Positions 20,062 through 53,443 of a stretch of DNA of 64,000 nt are shown here, piece by piece. The stretch lies in contig JBAZVO010000005.1 of NCBI GenBank assembly GCA_041660865.1, positions 62,626-126,625 of the forward strand. Direction: 5' to 3'. The notes below the pieces were generated by a model. It was not told where the DNA came from. It ran no database searches and saw only the letters and a program-made list of their open reading frames with translations. Position 1 is the first letter of the stretch, and every line of letters begins with the position of its first letter. The stretch comes from Candidatus Woesearchaeota archaeon (GTDB taxonomy: Archaea; Nanobdellota; Nanobdellia; Woesearchaeales; 21-14-0-10-32-9). The translations under genes and the position numbers were made by a program.

Positions 20062-22218
20062 ATGTCAGGGGATGAAAAAATGAAAGGAAAATTAATTTTA
20101 GGATTTTTTCTGATTGCAGCACTTGTTGTAACAGGATGTATTCCTCAAACGCCAATTAATGGAACTGAGGATTTATCAATAGGAACTCAAGAAGGTCTTC
20201 TTGGAAATAATAATGTTAAAGATAGTAACTTCAAAAACGTTGAAGAATATCAAGCATTCATTAAAGATCATTCTAGTGGAAGCGCAGGATATTATGGACG
20301 TCTGGGCGGAGTTATGATGGAAGCTACTGCGGCCATGAAATCTTCAGATTCAATAGATGTTTCAAATTCAGGTAGTGGTGTTGATTTTTCAGGCACAAAT
20401 AATCAAGTTATAGGTGTTGATGAAGCAGATATGTTAAAAACTGATGGAGAATATATTTATACAATAACTGAGAATGTTGTATTTATAATAAACTCATATC
20501 CTGGAAAAGAAGCTGAAGTTGTATCTAAAATAAAATTCGATAAAGATTATCCAACAGCATTATTTATCGAGGGTAATAAACTTGCAGTAATTGGAACTGT
20601 TAATGATTTTAATTTTTTAAGCGCTCAAGGATTTTCAAGAAATCAAGGATATACATTTGTAAAAATCTATGATATTTCAAATAGAGCAAAACCAACATTA
20701 TTAAAAGAATTAAAATACGAAGGACAATATAATGATGCAAGATTAATCGGATCTGATATGTATTTAGTATCTACATTTTATCCTGAATATAGAACTGATT
20801 ATCCAACTCCATTATATTTTGAAGGAACAGTAAAAAAAGAAATGGCTGTACAAAATATACATTATTTCAATATACCTTATACTAATCCTTCTTTTGTTAT
20901 TGTTAATTCTGTAAATTTAGAAAAACAAACAACGACGGATTCAGTTGCATTAACTGTTGAAGGATATCCTAATGTGTATATGTCAGAAGATAATTTGTAT
21001 TTAGTTTACACAGAATACATAAATGAATGGGAATTTGAACAACAAGTAAGATTGGAATTAATTGTTCCAAAATTATCTTTAGAAGATCAAAAATTTGTTC
21101 AAAAAATAAATGCTGCAGATTCTGATATTTTATCAAGATATGAAAAACAATCAAAAATAATGCAAGTTGTTGAAAAATATGTGTATAGTCTTCCAGAAAA
21201 AGATAGAGATGCACTTCAAGTAGAAATAGATGCAATTGTTAAAAAAAGACTATCTGAATACAAATATGCAGAATATACAATAATAAATAAAATAGGAATT
21301 AACAAAGGTCAAGTTTCAATTGAAGCTAATGGAAAAGTTCCAGGACATATATCAAATCAGTTTTCAATGGATGAATTTGAAGGAAACTTTAGAATTGCAA
21401 CAACCATAAGTCAAAGATGGTCAAGATTTATGACTGGTAATGATGTTACAACAACGAATGTTGCAACAGATGAAAAAATTGCAATAATGCCTCCAAATGG
21501 ACGATCTGAATCAATAAATAATATGTATGTTTTAGATTCAAATCTTAAAGAATTAGGCGCAATTGAGGGTTTAGCCAAAGGAGAGCAAATATATTCTGTA
21601 AGATTTATGGGTGATAGGGCATACGTTGTTACATTCAGACAAGTTGATCCTTTCTTTGTAATAGATTTGAAAGATCCATCAACACCTGCTGTACTTGGAG
21701 AATTAAAAATACCTGGCTTTTCAAAATACTTGCATCCATATGATGCAAATACCATAATAGGAATAGGACGAGACGCAACAGAATCAGGAAGAGCTGAAGG
21801 ATTAAAAGTTAGTCTTTTTGATGTATCTGATGTCGCAAATCCAAAAGAAATTGCAAAATATGTATCGGATGAAAAATATGCAAGTTCAACTGCAGAATGG
21901 GAACATAAAGCATTTTTATTCTCTAAAGAAAAGAATTTGCTTGTGCTTCCAGTATATAGCTACGGATACAATGGTGGGCAGAGTATGAATGGTGCACTTG
22001 TCTTTAAAATAACTAAAGATAGCATCAATTTAAGAGGTCTTGTTGATCATGGAAGTCAAAATAACTATGGTCCAACAGTTGAAAGAAGCCTATACATTAA
22101 TGACGAGCTTTATACAAAGAGTCCATATTTATTAAGAGTTAATTCACTTGTTGACTTGAGCAGCATAAAGAATGTAACTTTAATTGTAAATGAAGACTCA
22201 ATTATTAAAAAATATTAA
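20062..22218 (+). CDS. Secreted beta-propeller-domain lipoprotein
   Basis: Signal peptide with lipobox VVTGC. Beta_propel-like motifs (VDEADMLKTDGEYIY, RFMGDRAYVVTFRQVDPFFVIDL, GFSKYLHPY). The start may be the ATG at 20080. Confidence 0.7.
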   Translation: MSGDEKMKGKLILGFFLIAALVVTGCIPQTPINGTEDLSIGTQEGLLGNNNVKDSNFKNVEEYQAFIKDHSSGSAGYYGRLGGVMMEATAAMKSSDSIDVSNSGSGVDFSGTNNQVIGVDEADMLKTDGEYIYTITENVVFIINSYPGKEAEVVSKIKFDKDYPTALFIEGNKLAVIGTVNDFNFLSAQGFSRNQGYTFVKIYDISNRAKPTLLKELKYEGQYNDARLIGSDMYLVSTFYPEYRTDYPTPLYFEGTVKKEMAVQNIHYFNIPYTNPSFVIVNSVNLEKQTTTDSVALTVEGYPNVYMSEDNLYLVYTEYINEWEFEQQVRLELIVPKLSLEDQKFVQKINAADSDILSRYEKQSKIMQVVEKYVYSLPEKDRDALQVEIDAIVKKRLSEYKYAEYTIINKIGINKGQVSIEANGKVPGHISNQFSMDEFEGNFRIATTISQRWSRFMTGNDVTTTNVATDEKIAIMPPNGRSESINNMYVLDSNLKELGAIEGLAKGEQIYSVRFMGDRAYVVTFRQVDPFFVIDLKDPSTPAVLGELKIPGFSKYLHPYDANTIIGIGRDATESGRAEGLKVSLFDVSDVANPKEIAKYVSDEKYASSTAEWEHKAFLFSKEKNLLVLPVYSYGYNGGQSMNGALVFKITKDSINLRGLVDHGSQNNYGPTVERSLYINDELYTKSPYLLRVNSLVDLSSIKNVTLIVNEDSIIKKY

Positions 22219-22341: not shown

Positions 22342-22474
22342 GCGGAGGTAGCCAAGCGGCCTAAGGCGACCGCCTGCAGAAGCAGACAACTGCTGTATTG
22401 AGCACGAACGTCAAGTTAGTGCGATGATAAAACTAGACAGCGGTTATCCGGGGGTTCGAATCCCTCCCTCCGCT
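22342..22474 (+). tRNA. tRNA-Cys (anticodon GCA) with a 59-nt intron (22380-22438) after position 37
   Basis: Acceptor GCGGAGG/CCTCCGC, anticodon stem ACCGC/GCGGT, loop CTGCAG..A, T arm GGGGG-TTCGAAT-CCCTC. The discriminator is U, as expected for tRNA-Cys. Confidence 0.8.
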
Positions 22475-22513
22475 CTTTTTTTTCGTTACTTCTCAGTGAC
22501 AATATACGAAAGA

Positions 22514-22521
22514 TTTAAATA
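22514..22521 (+). promoter_or_regulatory. Candidate TATA box (TTTAAATA) with a purine-rich BRE, for the thrS leader transcript
   Basis: GAAAGATTTAAATAAG is repeated exactly at 29158-29173 ahead of another cassette gene. It lies about 47 nt upstream of the leader ORF's ATG. Confidence 0.45.
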
Positions 22522-22567
22522 AGAGTTATGTTTCTATAATAAAATAATTAGTAAATATGGTGGTATT

Positions 22568-22648
22568 ATGAATGCAAACAAAAATAATGGAAAAGGAATT
22601 TTGTCTGAATTAGTTATTTCTCTAAATACCACTACAACCACTGCATGA
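22568..22648 (+). CDS. Candidate thrS leader peptide MNANKNNGKGILSELVISLNTTTTTA
   Basis: A 26-codon ORF with five consecutive Thr codons (ACC ACT ACA ACC ACT, 22628-22642). An SD-like GGTGG lies 5 nt upstream. It sits 222 nt upstream of the thrS start. Confidence 0.55.
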   Translation: MNANKNNGKGILSELVISLNTTTTTA

Positions 22649-22810
22649 ATGCAGCTCATTGTTATTCTATCTTAAAAAGAATCTCTGATTCTTGTTTTGT
22701 CTGGAGCTGGTAACTCTATAGATAAAATCTCAATCTTTAATTCTGATAAAAAACTCTGACTGAAAATTATAATTTTGAAAATAAGAAATAAGACTATAAA
22801 AAATAAAACA

Positions 22811-22862
22811 CGGAGGTAACGAAAATCAAAGATTTTCGAAACCTCCTCAATAAATTCGGAGG
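22811..22862 (+). promoter_or_regulatory. Decoy-SD / anti-SD hairpin plus the true thrS SD
   Basis: GGAGGTAACGAAAATC-AAA-GATTTTCGAAACCTCC forms a 14-bp stem with a 2x2 internal loop (22811-22845). ACCTCC (22840-22845) can alternatively pair with the thrS SD GGAGGT (22857-22862), which is 8 nt before the ATG at 22871. Confidence 0.55.
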
Positions 22863-22870
22863 TAATAAAA

Positions 22871-24316
22871 ATGGAAAATAATCAAAAATTTAAGAATAGA
22901 GAAGAAATAGTAAAAGAAATTCAAAGTAGGCATCTTATTTTAATGCCTGATGGACGAGAAATGCTGCTGGATCTAAAAAATCCTGAAGAAGTAAAAAGAA
23001 TACTAGATGAAGTTGGTGACGAAGAATTGAAAGCGTATATGCTCTCTGAAGAATTGAAGGGACAGCCAAAGGAAGAGCCACCTTCAATTAAAATGATGCA
23101 GCAACATGAACTCATAGGTTATGAGCCGTCGAGTGATTCAGGAAATTTTAGTATGTGGCCTAAAGGAAATTTAATATTTAGTCTCCTAAGAGATTGGTCG
23201 CATGAAATTGCTGTGAATAGATTGCAGGCAATGCAGATTGAGTCACCAGTATTATATGATTGGTCAGACCCAGAAATTCAGGAACAAGCAGGCTCTTTCC
23301 ATGAGAGGCATTACATAGTGAAAGCTCCAGATGATGATAAGAAAGAATTCATCTTGAGATTTGCAGCAGACTTTGGTCTCTTCAAAATTATGAAGAAAGC
23401 CAATTTTAGCCACAAGATGCTTCCTGTAAGAATGTATGAATTCTCCAAAAGTTTCAGATATGAAAAAAGCGGAGAATTATCTGGACTAAAAAGACTTCGA
23501 GCATTTCACATACCTGACTTGCATTGCTTCTGCAAAGATATTCCTCAAGGATGGGTTGAATATCAGCATCTCTACAAAGAGTATGTTAATCTTGCAAAAG
23601 GAGCAGGCGTTAAGTATGCAGTTGGATTTAGGATTGTGGAAGAGTTCTACAAAGAGCACAAAGAGAGACTTGTTGAGTTGCTGCAATACTCAAAGAGACC
23701 CGCATTTATAGAAGTGCTCTCAAAGATGAAGCATTATTGGGCTGTAAAAAATGAATTCCAAGGAATTGATAGCGTCGGTGGAAATATGCAACTGGTAACT
23801 GTGCAACTTGATGTCAAAGATGCGAAAGTCTATGGCATCAACTATGTGGATAGTGACGGAAGCAAAAAAGGATGCATAATTTGTCATTCAAGTATTGGCA
23901 GTATTGAAAGATGGATTTATGCAATACTTGAGGAAGCTTTGAAAAAAGAAAAACCTCAGCTTCCACTTTGGCTCTCTCCATCGCAGATAAGATTGATTCC
24001 AGTAAATCAAGCACAGATTGAATATTGTAAGTCGCTTAAATTTGACGGAGTTAGAATTGACATCGATGACAGCAATGATAGTTTAGGAAAGAAAATTGCG
24101 AATGCAAATAAAGAATGGATTCCTTACGTTGCAGTCATCGGCAATAAAGAAATGGAATCGGGCAAACTGATGGTGAACATAAGAGAAGATGGAAGCAAAA
24201 AAGAATTTTCCATCGTTGAACTTGAGAATGAGATTAAATCTAAATCTCAAGGAATGCCATTTAGACCTTTGCCTGTGCCTAAACTTGTAAGCCAAAGACC
24301 AATATTTTACGGATAA
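22871..24316 (+). CDS. thrS: Threonyl-tRNA synthetase, catalytic plus anticodon-binding domains only (no N-terminal editing domain)
   Basis: Class II motifs (FSKSFRYEKSGELSGLKRLRAFHIPDLHCF; GCIICHSSIGSIERWIYAILE). At 481 aa it is short, and the N-terminal ~70 aa do not resemble an editing domain. Confidence 0.85.
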   Translation: MENNQKFKNREEIVKEIQSRHLILMPDGREMLLDLKNPEEVKRILDEVGDEELKAYMLSEELKGQPKEEPPSIKMMQQHELIGYEPSSDSGNFSMWPKGNLIFSLLRDWSHEIAVNRLQAMQIESPVLYDWSDPEIQEQAGSFHERHYIVKAPDDDKKEFILRFAADFGLFKIMKKANFSHKMLPVRMYEFSKSFRYEKSGELSGLKRLRAFHIPDLHCFCKDIPQGWVEYQHLYKEYVNLAKGAGVKYAVGFRIVEEFYKEHKERLVELLQYSKRPAFIEVLSKMKHYWAVKNEFQGIDSVGGNMQLVTVQLDVKDAKVYGINYVDSDGSKKGCIICHSSIGSIERWIYAILEEALKKEKPQLPLWLSPSQIRLIPVNQAQIEYCKSLKFDGVRIDIDDSNDSLGKKIANANKEWIPYVAVIGNKEMESGKLMVNIREDGSKKEFSIVELENEIKSKSQGMPFRPLPVPKLVSQRPIFYG

Positions 24317-24499: not shown

Positions 24500-25168
24500 A
24501 TGGCTAATTTGAAACAAGATTTATTTATGGCTCATACGGCTTTGATGAAAAATATTGACTTGGGTGGCTTTTTAAGAGGATACACTTTACTTGATGTTGG
24601 CTCAGATTCTTTTGTGTATAAATCTAATTTAGAAGAAAAAATTATCAAAGTTTATGTCCCTCTTAGATTGACTTCAGGACAAGATTTTACTGTCGAGGAT
24701 GTTTTTGAAACTGTTAAATTATATAATTCTGATACATTGAAAGCAAAGAAAGCAGTAGAAGAAAGTTGGGGCGCGGTCTCTGATGAAATCAGAAGCATTG
24801 TCCTTAATGGCGTAAAATATGATGTTTTGGTTTCTATTTTGCCTCAAGGCGATGTGATGGGTATGGTGGGAGGTGAAGCTCTTGCTATTGGTCAGAGATA
24901 TATTGAAGGAAATAATTTAAAACAAATATTTGAACACAGTGAGAGAATTAAAGGGTTTGAAAATTTTTATAATGCACCAAATGAAAGTTCAACTAAAATT
25001 CGTCAAATGCTCGCTAATGCATCTATGTTAATAAATAACGCTGTCGGTGTTCCGTTTCAAATAGATAATAAAAATGTCAAGCCTGTTTTGTATTCTGATA
25101 ACAAAGTTCTTGATTTAATAGTAACTGACTTAGCAGATTCTATTGTTGCCAATTATTGTATTTTGTAA
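24500..25168 (+). CDS. Hypothetical protein (cassette gene)
   Basis: An ORF of 222 aa between repeats A1 and A2, with no recognised motif. Confidence 0.45.
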   Translation: MANLKQDLFMAHTALMKNIDLGGFLRGYTLLDVGSDSFVYKSNLEEKIIKVYVPLRLTSGQDFTVEDVFETVKLYNSDTLKAKKAVEESWGAVSDEIRSIVLNGVKYDVLVSILPQGDVMGMVGGEALAIGQRYIEGNNLKQIFEHSERIKGFENFYNAPNESSTKIRQMLANASMLINNAVGVPFQIDNKNVKPVLYSDNKVLDLIVTDLADSIVANYCIL

Positions 25169-25358: not shown

Positions 25359-25874
25359 ATGTTGAGAGTTGAACCGAATCTACCATATGCTGGAATAGTA
25401 GTTGATTTTAAACTATTGAGAAATGAGCTTGTAAAAGTGTATTTTACAAATATTCTTGGACGTGATCCTAGTATCTATGAGTGGGGCACTTGCGGTTTAT
25501 CACAAGATGATTTGCTGGTTGGCTTATCTAAATCGATTCCTGGGAAAGCTAATGTTGGTGTACCTCATATTGTTGTTTCATTTCCACATGTTACTGCAGT
25601 CTATAGGTGGGGAAATCCTTCTGAATCTAATGAACGAGAAACAAATATTTATCGTTTAGGTTTAGGTAAAACTGAAGAATTGACGGAAATAATATTTCCA
25701 GAACCAAAATTTCCTTTTGAGGTAGGATGTCCAGCAGAGATACATATTATTGGTAGGGAGATGGGATTTCGAAGTACAGCAAATACATTGGATGAGTATA
25801 TGAGGATGGCGGTACCAATTGGAACTTCAATACCTATAGCAAATTCTAATATGATTTATCAATCACGTAGATAA
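25359..25874 (+). CDS. Hypothetical protein (cassette gene)
   Basis: An ORF of 171 aa between A2 and A3. Confidence 0.45.
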   Translation: MLRVEPNLPYAGIVVDFKLLRNELVKVYFTNILGRDPSIYEWGTCGLSQDDLLVGLSKSIPGKANVGVPHIVVSFPHVTAVYRWGNPSESNERETNIYRLGLGKTEELTEIIFPEPKFPFEVGCPAEIHIIGREMGFRSTANTLDEYMRMAVPIGTSIPIANSNMIYQSRR

Positions 25875-29029: not shown

Positions 29030-29177
29030 GTCGAATTTTTTATGTTGGTTTTTTCGAATTCATTTTTCATCGTTTGATGAGATGAATTTTTCGCTTCGTT
29101 CGTTTTTGTTATTATTCTTTTTATGCTATTTTATTACTCAAAAGTGGTTAAAAATAGAAAGATTTAAATAAGTTCTT
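29030..29177 (+). repeat. Cassette-boundary repeat A6 (decayed) plus promoter element
   Basis: TTGTTGGTTTTTTCGAA..., hairpin AATTCAT-TTT-TCATC-GTTT-GATGA-G-ATGAATT, CGCTTCGTTCGTTTTTGTTATTATTC, then GAAAGATTTAAATAAG, which is identical to 22510-22525. Confidence 0.6.
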
Positions 29178-51769: not shown

Positions 51770-51880
51770 GCCTCCGTGGCTTAGCGGTATAGCGCGACAT
51801 TGGTATTTTTGCTGCAAGCAAAAGCTTGGAATGCAATGACAAAGATGTCGAGGTCGTGAGTTCAAATCTCACCGGAGGCT
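51770..51880 (+). tRNA. tRNA-Thr (anticodon GGT) with a 39-nt intron (51806-51844)
   Basis: Acceptor GCCTCCG/CGGAGGC, anticodon stem CGACA/TGTCG, loop TTGGTA..A, T arm GTGAG-TTCAAAT-CTCAC. Confidence 0.75.
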
Positions 51881-51946: not shown

Positions 51947-52061
51947 GAGGAGGTAGCAAAGCCTGGTCAAATGCGCAGGACTTAAGTTGCCCGATAAAGA
52001 ATGTCGGTTTGAGACATCCTGTCCCTTAGTGGGTTCAAGGGTTCGAATCCCTTCCTCCTCA
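51947..52061 (+). tRNA. tRNA-Leu (anticodon TAA) with a 29-nt intron (51987-52015)
   Basis: Acceptor GAGGAGG/CCTCCTC, anticodon stem CAGGA/TCCTG, loop CTTAAG..A, a long variable arm (CCC-TTAGT-GGG), T arm AAGGG-TTCGAAT-CCCTT. Confidence 0.8.
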
Positions 52062-53337: not shown

Positions 53338-53443
53338 GAGCCCGTAGCTTAGCCTGGTGGAGCGCCGGTCTTATATGACTTCGTTTCATTGCAGACGGCT
53401 CGAAGAGAGCCGGTGGTCGGGAGTTCAAATCTCCCCGGGCTCA
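53338..53443 (+). tRNA. tRNA-Ile (apparent anticodon TAT) with a 32-nt intron (53376-53407)
   Basis: Acceptor GAGCCCG/CGGGCTC, anticodon stem CCGGT/GCCGG, loop CTTATA..A, T arm GGGAG-TTCAAAT-CTCCC. The anticodon call assumes the canonical 37/38 intron position. Confidence 0.6.

Follow-up and report, generated by a model that had tools for sequence, protein, structure and literature searches.

What is a small open reading frame (ORF) that closes on a run of threonine (Thr) codons doing upstream of an archaeal gene for threonyl-tRNA synthetase (ThrRS)? The question is raised by thrS in a stretch of 64,000 nucleotides (nt) from Candidatus Woesearchaeota (contig JBAZVO010000005.1), here called the window, in which thrS and the parts of its leader lie on the plus strand. 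Amino acid sensing via ribosomes stalled on leader peptides is a textbook bacterial mechanism, and a sequence-only reading of the window had placed such a leader between a TATA-like box (22514-22521) and the thrS ATG (22871), both of which are present at those positions. We gathered 171 loci with thrS homologues (group A is the lineage of the window). From their comparison, the region is probably a conserved cis-regulatory leader of thrS that acts as a ribosome-mediated, most likely translational, attenuator.

The leader ORF begins ~50 nt 3' of a conserved element, AAAGATTTAAATA (22509-22521), that combines a transcription factor B recognition element (BRE)-like AAAGA with a TATA box (TTTAAATA, 22514-22521). 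The TATA columns are unchanged across nine aligned relatives, and the distance to the leader ORF is near-constant in the alignment. The identical 13-mer recurs 30 nt before the ATG of another ORF (29193), and thus transcription is predicted to start at ~22544, ~30 nt past the TATA box. From this predicted start, 24 nt precede the leader AUG and the 5' region before thrS comes to ~327 nt, which is unusually long. Boxes of the form TTTAWATA at 29163, 59539, 27878 and 39443 lie either 30 nt or 42-52 nt before ORF ATGs, which suggests that leaderless (30 nt) and Shine-Dalgarno (SD)-led mRNAs both occur in this genome.

The ORF itself (22568-22648) has 26 codons, encodes MNANKNNGKGILSELVISLNTTTTTA, and contains the proposed stall site, the five consecutive Thr codons ACC ACT ACA ACC ACT (22628-22642). 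Its SD region, UGGUGGUAUU (22558-22567), has GGUG 5 nt before the AUG. The sequence-only reading judged the Thr run unlikely to arise by chance, and it is the sole case of four or more consecutive ACN triplets on either strand of the whole window; likewise, among 1006 ATG ORFs of 10-60 codons, the leader alone has at least four Thr in its last seven codons. In the long ORFs of the window, 4% of Thr codons are ACC, vs. two of the five in the run. Just before the run, the codons V-I-S-L form a pyrimidine-rich block (UUAUUUCUCU, 22614-22624; kept as TTTCTCTAA in alignments) that is a possible additional anti-SD sequence. A run of Cys codons in an ORF on the minus strand (27680-27639) is out of frame within a 293-aa ORF and was dismissed as chance.

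Homologous ORFs are present in relatives. Small ORFs whose ends are rich in Thr occur 5' of thrS homologues of 55-78% identity, at loci with GC contents of 22-64%. The sequence-only reading had called for a comparison of related thrS upstream regions, and among non-redundant loci we identified an upstream ORF with at least four Thr in the last ten codons at 19/29 short-form thrS genes vs. 2/97 long-form (editing-domain) genes; covarying stems are described below. No other amino acid is enriched at the ends of upstream ORFs, and the reverse-strand control gave 3/29 short-form loci. The peptides end, before the stop codon, in KTTTTTTA (locus L001), KTTTTTA (L081), LTTTTTTA (L163), KTTTTTTTA (L166), DTTTTTA (L169, 49% GC), QTTTTTTA (L170) and QTTHTTTSATTTY (L083), in ATTTTTD in Methanocella and in ITTPATTVAA in bacterial loci.

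Several features of these ORFs are those expected of translated sequence. In 12 of the 13 distinct group-A leaders, whose N-terminal sequences have diverged, 17-21 codons separate the ATG from the start of the Thr run, and the chance of each such open frame is 3-9% in shuffles. The start codon, the open frame and the stop directly after the Thr run are all conserved in relatives. Conservation extends to the Thr codons and the RNA helices but not to the N-terminal half of the peptide. Variation inside the run is confined to third codon positions and is therefore synonymous. Tail codons across leaders are ACC (21), ACT (48), ACA (7) and ACG (0), so that ACY, the codons read by tRNA-Thr(GGU), account for 91% of them vs. 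42% in the long ORFs of the window. The ORF, its constant spacing and the synonymous changes are signatures of translation, from which we infer that the leader is translated. In L092 and L094, the TATA box lies 30 nt from the leader ATG, which would make the leader ORF of these loci leaderless.

Folding of the full leader (22545-22888) yields -61.9 kcal/mol (z = -2.75 vs. shuffles), and the 5' part of the leader contains two short conserved helices. The sequence-only reading noted that GTGGTATT (22560-22567), at the leader SD, is complementary to AATACCAC (22625-22632), at the first Thr codons. This pairing stands and extends to a 10-bp helix, H0, between UGGUGGUAUU (22558-22567) and AAUACCACUA (22625-22634), which is present in both the minimum free energy (MFE) and centroid structures. 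Cognate strands pair better than non-cognate strands across 14 leaders (-9.06 vs. -7.40 kcal/mol, permutation p≈0.001), and compensatory cases include GGUGGUAUC/GAUACCACU in L169 and GGAGUAGUC/GACUACU in L170. The second helix, hairpin H1 (CUGCA-UGAA-UGCAG, 22641-22654), had also been recognized from the sequence; its 5' arm is formed by the last Thr and the Ala codons and its loop holds the stop codon. H1 is conserved, with 84.6% of cells pairing in alignment A4 and compensatory changes at three of the five pairs (e.g., CUGCU/AGCAG in L166 and ACUUG/CAAGU in L171).

Directly 3' of H1 is a feature that the sequence-only reading did not contain, an imperfect hairpin of ~105 nt (22656-22759) that we refer to as the rod. 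It is closed by the base helices UCA:UGA, GUU:AAC, UU:AA and UAUC:GAUA, formed between the 5' base strand (segment 1, 22656-22671) and the 3' base strand (segment 2, 22745-22759). The rod was recovered independently in most relatives by per-sequence MFE folds. RNAalifold, applied to MAFFT alignments of group-A leaders, returned the apical stem alone; thus, the MFE structure of one sequence was used for counting pairs in A4, a sequence-based MAFFT alignment of 13 leaders. By this count 77.6% of rod cells pair vs. 68.1% in shuffled alignments (0/500 reach the observed value) and 36-44% when partners are slid, compensatory changes occur at 26 of 42 pairs, and the covariation score is 0.329 vs. 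0.183. The closing helix gave p=0.002 in its own test. A covariance model (R1) of H1 plus the rod matches the window solely at 22636-22763 (106.8 bits) and, over 1.1 Mb of loci, matches solely upstream of thrS, although among the scanned loci it missed the divergent leaders L010, L012, L095 and L083.

Two pairings that had been proposed from the sequence involve this region. CAGCTC (22652-22657) and GAGCTG (22704-22709) are present and complementary, but the pairing lacks covariation support (p=0.37) and competes with the covarying apical stem, so it may be a local alternative at most. The hairpin AAGAATC-TCT-GATTCTT (22677-22693) also exists in the sequence, but in the rod a distal GAUUCU is the more frequent partner of its 5' arm. 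Other candidate structures were discarded. The block after the stop codon and the 3' flank of the apical stem do not covary (p=0.57), the true partner being the GAUUCUGAU block; CUGA/UGAU were dropped as C/D-box or K-turn motifs because these bases belong to covarying Watson-Crick helices; and no T-arm could be drawn for a tRNA-like cloverleaf of the whole domain.

The tip of the rod is a stem-loop, UGGAG-CUGGUAA-CUCUA (22702-22718), in which the 7-nt loop has the form of the anticodon loop of tRNA-Thr(GGU) (Y32 U33 G34 G35 U36 A37 A38). The loop of the window is CUGGUAA and that of its own tRNA-Thr(GGU) is UUGGUAA. YUGGUAA on a 5-bp stem is present in the scanned group-A loci L001, L081, L082 and L092/L094 and absent from L083, and by eye the remaining group-A leaders have this loop or one like it (8 nt in three). 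Hairpins of this kind have a background rate of 0.04 per kb. The apical stem covaries (p<5e-5), with closing pairs distributed as GC:8/AU:5 and GC:8/AU:3/UA:1. There is one such mimic per leader in the scanned loci, with a second, weaker candidate in L094, and that of the window lies ~150 nt upstream of the thrS SD.

Another pairing, also new relative to the sequence-only reading, connects the rod to thrS. The ribosome-binding region of thrS (segment 3, 22858-22873) includes the SD GGAGGU (22858-22863) and the ATG at 22871. The core of segment 2, AACUCUGAC (22752-22760), forms the 3' base strand in the rod and is also an anti-SD sequence, able to pair with UUCGGAGG of the real SD or with the near-identical ACGGAGG of a decoy copy. 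In the window, ACUCUGAC (22753-22760) pairs with UUCGGAGG (22855-22862), and CUCUGA (22754-22759) is paired with UCGGAG (22856-22861) in both the MFE and centroid structures. Across 12 leaders, cognate combinations of segment 2 and the ribosome-binding region are more stable than non-cognate ones (-9.87 vs. -7.68 kcal/mol, p=0.00035), with the window placed 1/12; the control against thrS codons 11-19 gave p=0.59. Individual cases are UGAACUUCU:GAGAAGUUCA in L001, ACUAUCUC:GAGGUAGU in L170 and CAUCCUCUGG:ACGGAGGAUG in L169. In L001, segment 1 AGUUCAU also pairs with segment 2 AUGAACU. Because both use overlapping nucleotides of segment 2, rod closure and SD pairing are mutually exclusive. The covariation of segment 2 with the thrS ribosome-binding site also argues that the leader and thrS segments are on one RNA.

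In the lineage of the window, this pairing may be relayed. A 9-mer, CGGAGGUAA, is duplicated, with a decoy copy at 22811-22819 and the real copy at 22857-22865, and the decoy SD GGAGGU (22812-22817) is held in a hairpin (22812-22846) with the inner stem CGAAAAUC/GAUUUUCG and the anti-SD sequence ACCUCC (22841-22846). The sequence-only reading described this hairpin correctly, with the decoy, ACCUCC and the real SD each off by one position, and every other element that it listed is present. The hairpin forms at -18.2 kcal/mol, and pairing of ACCUCC with the real SD instead gives -15.3 kcal/mol, so the switch costs ~3 kcal/mol. Given that ACCUCC can pair with either copy at this cost, capture of the decoy by segment 2 would pass ACCUCC to the real SD. 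The hairpin is not present in relatives, which instead have AGCC..GGCUAUAAACUGGGAG. We note that in L001, L081, L164 and L082 the conserved AGCC-N5-GGCUAUAAACUGGGAG lies just 5' of thrS, and that its TATA-like core is too near the ATG for a thrS promoter. The tail of the leader also matches the thrS ribosome-binding region when all groups are considered (p=0.009, control p=0.36); this duplex is weak in the window (-7.1 kcal/mol, rank 16/20).

Other lineages retain the coding part of the design and vary its RNA part. Compact relatives have a direct pairing between the thrS SD and the region of the Thr codons (e.g., UACUUCUG:CGGAGGUA in L083; also in L092). Methanocella (group B) leaders keep a three-segment layout, in which GGUGGUAAC is followed by an in-frame conserved CUG (UUG in L090), ~17 codons, the Thr run and a stop overlapping GAGGRC. 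The partner of GAGGRC is GUCCUC, a strand whose CCUCU is complementary to the thrS SD. The anticodon-like loop is missing from these leaders. The Methanocella loci L084-L088, L090, L096 and L007 also share a conserved UUGUAG/AUGUAG ~10 nt past the TATA box and before a GGUGGU SD. This is a start codon followed at once by a stop, in which the UUG/AUG variation keeps the start codon; given its position, it would not be expected on a transcript from that TATA box. L096 comes from the complete genome of Methanocella sp. MCL-LM; there, a 23S-5S rRNA operon lies ~1.3 kb 5' of the thrS leader (L096 positions 1-1649 and ~3001).

Bacterial loci carry related leaders. Group C, annotated as 'uncultured bacterium', has a perfect TTGACA-17-TATAAT sigma-70 promoter and a homologous peptide ending in LIISLSSRGYRSITTPATTVAA, and the alifold consensus pairs the thrS SD with a conserved CUUUCC inside the ORF, equivalent to the UUAUUUCUCU block of the window. 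Five such loci (L004, L008, L014, L089 and L091) combine a short-form thrS with a homologous Thr-rich leader behind the sigma-70 promoter, and the sequences suggest transfer of thrS, along with the leader, between Bacteria and Archaea. Loci L093/L009 (Clostridiales bacterium GWD2_32_19) and L013 (human gut metagenome) have two successive small ORFs 5' of thrS, the first with an internal ITTTTI or ITTVTV and the second with a conserved TTCTTMTCYTCWGARATAACCTG block. By sequence comparison, then, the cassette is common to DPANN archaea, Methanocella and some bacteria. Its common denominator is a Thr-codon ORF with predicted sequestration of the SD, since Methanocella, bacterial, AT-rich DPANN (group-D) leaders and L083 keep the ORF without the mimic; the rod with its anticodon-like tip is an elaboration of the window's lineage.

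We propose the following sequence of events. Transcription would begin ~30 nt past the TATA box at 22514, and a ribosome would load at the GGUG SD and translate the 26-codon leader ORF. Segment 1, right after the stop-codon hairpin, can pair with segment 2 and shut the base of the rod; alternatively, segment 2 can pair with the thrS SD/AUG region, directly or via the decoy SD and ACCUCC relay. The position of the ribosome would decide between the two pairings. Counted from the first base of the stop codon, segment 1 begins after 10 nt, and given ribosome footprints a terminating ribosome would reach it, whereas a ribosome with its A site on the first Thr codons would not. When charged tRNA-Thr(GGU) is scarce, the ribosome would stall on the five ACY/ACA codons, covering the UUUCUCU block within UUAUUUCUCU and the Thr run and leaving segment 1 free. 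The rod would then close and lock segment 2, and the open ribosome-binding site of thrS would allow more ThrRS to be made. When Thr-tRNA is plentiful, the ribosome would enter the stop hairpin and the rod base, and the freed segment 2 would pair with the SD region and switch thrS off. H0, which involves the leader SD and the first Thr codons, would then shut the leader ORF after the first passage, and therefore the decision would be made once, during transcription; ribosome-binding site sequestration in the E. coli trp leader is a precedent. The proposed polarity fits physiology, since bacterial T-box and pheST systems respond likewise. It also agrees with the Thr-codon:SD pairing of the compact relatives and with simulated footprints in the window, in which accessibility of the thrS SD rises from 0.45 in the free leader to 0.67-0.73 when a ribosome occupies the Thr run, compared with 0.53 for a ribosome at the stop codon. 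The output is more likely to be translational, by SD sequestration, than termination of transcription, and neither the alignments nor a terminator scan revealed a conserved U-tract terminator after H1 or after the rod in archaeal leaders. Thus, of the thr-operon/pheST logic that the sequence-only reading proposed, the comparative evidence favors the sensing half, the Thr-codon ORF, and not the termination output.

Several results weigh against this attenuator mechanism. Its basis is comparative or thermodynamic throughout, and the duplex permutation tests are of our own construction and use 12-20 related sequences. The rod base of the window is weak (3+3+2+4 bp), and on its own the rod reaches a folding z-score of just -1.28. 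The equilibrium footprint simulations give a clear effect in the window, L012 and L171 only, most relatives being inconsistent, and in several relatives the sequestered state wins regardless of the footprint. The switch would therefore have to be kinetic and co-transcriptional. With the leader ORF closed by H0, the off state also needs a ribosome coupled to transcription. In Methanocella, the start codon of the leader would be CUG or UUG, and both alternative helices are 90-94% pairable without any compensatory change. Lastly, a TATA-like CTATAAAAAAT near 22795 could supply thrS with its own promoter.

This last element is the starting point of a highly improbable explanation in which the ORF and hairpins have nothing to do with control of thrS (being a small protein gene, a small RNA or chance) and thrS is transcribed from near 22795. 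Small ORFs and hairpins are indeed common in AT-rich DNA, but TATAAAAA occurs 34 times in the window, a 41-aa ORF on the minus strand (22659-22534) is not conserved, and the association of the element with thrS holds across lineages and GC contents. Conservation of the Thr codons and helices rather than of the peptide's N-terminal half, and covariation of leader segments with the thrS ribosome-binding site, also argue for a role in thrS expression. Granted such a role, the leader could be a classical transcription attenuator, in which ribosome position chooses between terminator and antiterminator, or, in an archaeal version, factor-dependent termination acts on untranslated RNA. The sensing half would be of the same design, a cognate-codon ORF followed by alternative helices. 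Group C, moreover, has GC hairpins followed by U runs before thrS, along with its sigma-70 promoter, and H1 plus its T-rich tail is called terminator-like by a simple scan, as the only match. However, the T-rich block after H1 is a strand of a covarying helix, the archaeal leaders have no conserved U-tract after H1 or the rod, and segment 2 has the thrS ribosome-binding site itself as its covarying alternative partner; we regard this output as quite unlikely here. A T-box-like riboswitch, with uncharged tRNA-Thr bound directly, the Thr codons as specifier, UGGU meeting the tRNA 3' end and no translation, is scarcely plausible. Thr codons and a UGGN motif do occur in a leader upstream of an aminoacyl-tRNA synthetase gene, but T-box models have no match in the window, either at the gathering threshold or at E<=10, and none at gathering in 16 related loci. 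UGGU would face UCCA (U73 of tRNA-Thr(GGU)), a mismatch at the specificity-defining position, the Thr codons pair with the leader SD in a helix rather than lying in a specifier loop, and the conserved start codon, open frame and stop directly after the Thr run also speak against it.

The anticodon-arm mimic at the rod tip raises the question of synthetase autoregulation for Archaea. If free ThrRS bound it and repressed thrS, as in the operator of E. coli, the small ORF could be secondary or incidental. No non-coding feature of group-A leaders is more conserved than YUGGUAA on its covarying 5-bp stem, the loop matches that of tRNA-Thr(GGU) in the window, and the E. coli thrS operator acts via such mimics (PMC9976931). 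Nonetheless, we consider an operator of this type, acting alone, unlikely. Scanned leaders have a single mimic (beside the weaker second candidate of L094), that of the window is ~150 nt from the thrS SD, and Methanocella, bacterial and group-D relatives and L083 keep the Thr-codon ORF without it. The conservation of the ORF is of the coding type. In addition, the N-terminal domain of E. coli ThrRS is the part that competes with the ribosome, and the short ThrRS has no such domain. The rod tip might instead add a second input to the attenuator, hypothetically through ThrRS binding. We tentatively raise the possibility of a composite sensor, in which charging of tRNA-Thr(GGU) is read via stalling on ACY codons and free ThrRS via the mimic, with the rod base as the switch. 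If true, one RNA would unite leader-peptide attenuation and a thrS operator, which are separate strategies in bacteria, and neither ribosome-mediated attenuation nor a synthetase operator would have been described in Archaea before.

The gene downstream of the leader, thrS (22871-24316), encodes a short-form ThrRS of 481 aa that matches Pfam PF00587 and PF03129 only. It consists of the class II core and the anticodon-binding domain, without the N-terminal editing domain, and matches to solved structures span this catalytic and anticodon-binding part. The protein is 100% identical to one from a Candidatus Woesearchaeota metagenome-assembled genome. The genes 3' of thrS (24500-25168 and 25359-25874) have no Pfam match. 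Directly 5' of the leader promoter is a gene for tRNA-Cys(GCA) (22342-22474) with a ~60-nt intron, its own TATA box (22293) and a T8 run after it; it was found by Rfam and missed by plain ARAGORN. Upstream of this is a gene (20062-22218) for a 718-aa beta-propeller protein (PF09826). The GC content of the window is 30%.

Introns are present in four tRNA genes of the window, in keeping with its archaeal origin. One (51770-51880) is called tRNA-Phe(aaa) by ARAGORN and reads as tRNA-Thr(GGU) by hand, with the anticodon stem CGACA/UGUCG and the loop UUGGUA|A, interrupted after position 37 by an intron of 39 nt, and with discriminator U73. It clusters with intron-bearing Leu (51947-52061) and Ile (53338-53443) genes, plus Gly and Glu genes.

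A full-text literature search revealed no leader-peptide attenuator of an archaeal synthetase, in agreement with the sequence-only reading, nor any ribosome-mediated attenuation in Archaea, although absence from the texts searched is not proof. The thrS leader family thus offers a concrete, testable archaeal case, with covarying helices ready to mutate. It occurs in uncultured DPANN archaea and in Methanocella; the cultured Methanocella sp. MCL-LM, with a complete genome, carries it and may be open to experiments. The family would bear on the question of whether archaeal transcription-translation coupling is exploited for regulation, on how aminoacyl-tRNA synthetases are tuned in genome-reduced, probably auxotrophic DPANN archaea, and, given the homologous leader behind a sigma-70 promoter in bacterial loci, on whether regulatory leaders travel with genes across domains.

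Among known systems, the leader resembles thrL and pheM (of the thr operon and pheST) in having a short ORF of cognate codons, a stop beside alternative helices, and a ribosome position that would be read by refolding. It differs in lacking a conserved intrinsic terminator, in having the downstream ribosome-binding site as the alternative partner and in its archaeal BRE/TATA promoter; the Rfam Thr_leader model has no match in the window leader, and no family of Rfam 15 matches it (gathering threshold or E<=10) or the 16 related loci (gathering threshold). With the T-box of Gram-positive thrS/thrZ it shares a long structured leader and a predicted increase in ThrRS when tRNA-Thr is poorly charged, but sensing here would be through the ribosome rather than directly by tRNA, and T-box sequence and Stem I features are lacking. 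The E. coli thrS operator (PMC9976931) likewise has a thrS leader hairpin whose 7-nt loop copies the Thr anticodon loop. Here, however, there is one mimic rather than two, it is far from the SD, it accompanies a Thr-codon ORF with signatures of translation, and the synthetase lacks the N-terminal domains; by this comparison we would keep the leader outside the operator family, with ThrRS binding hypothetical. Translational attenuators offer a further parallel. In mycobacterial polycysteine small-ORF attenuators, scarce charged tRNA stalls the ribosome on a run of cognate codons (bioRxiv 10.1101/834739), and the probable output of the thrS leader is shared with these and with the ermC/cat leaders (PMC5499644, PMC5118997). 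What sets the thrS leader apart from the mycobacterial, ermC and cat leaders is its use of Thr, its aminoacyl-tRNA synthetase target and its occurrence in Archaea, along with the ~105-nt rod with an anticodon-like tip and a leader SD that pairs with the sensor codons.

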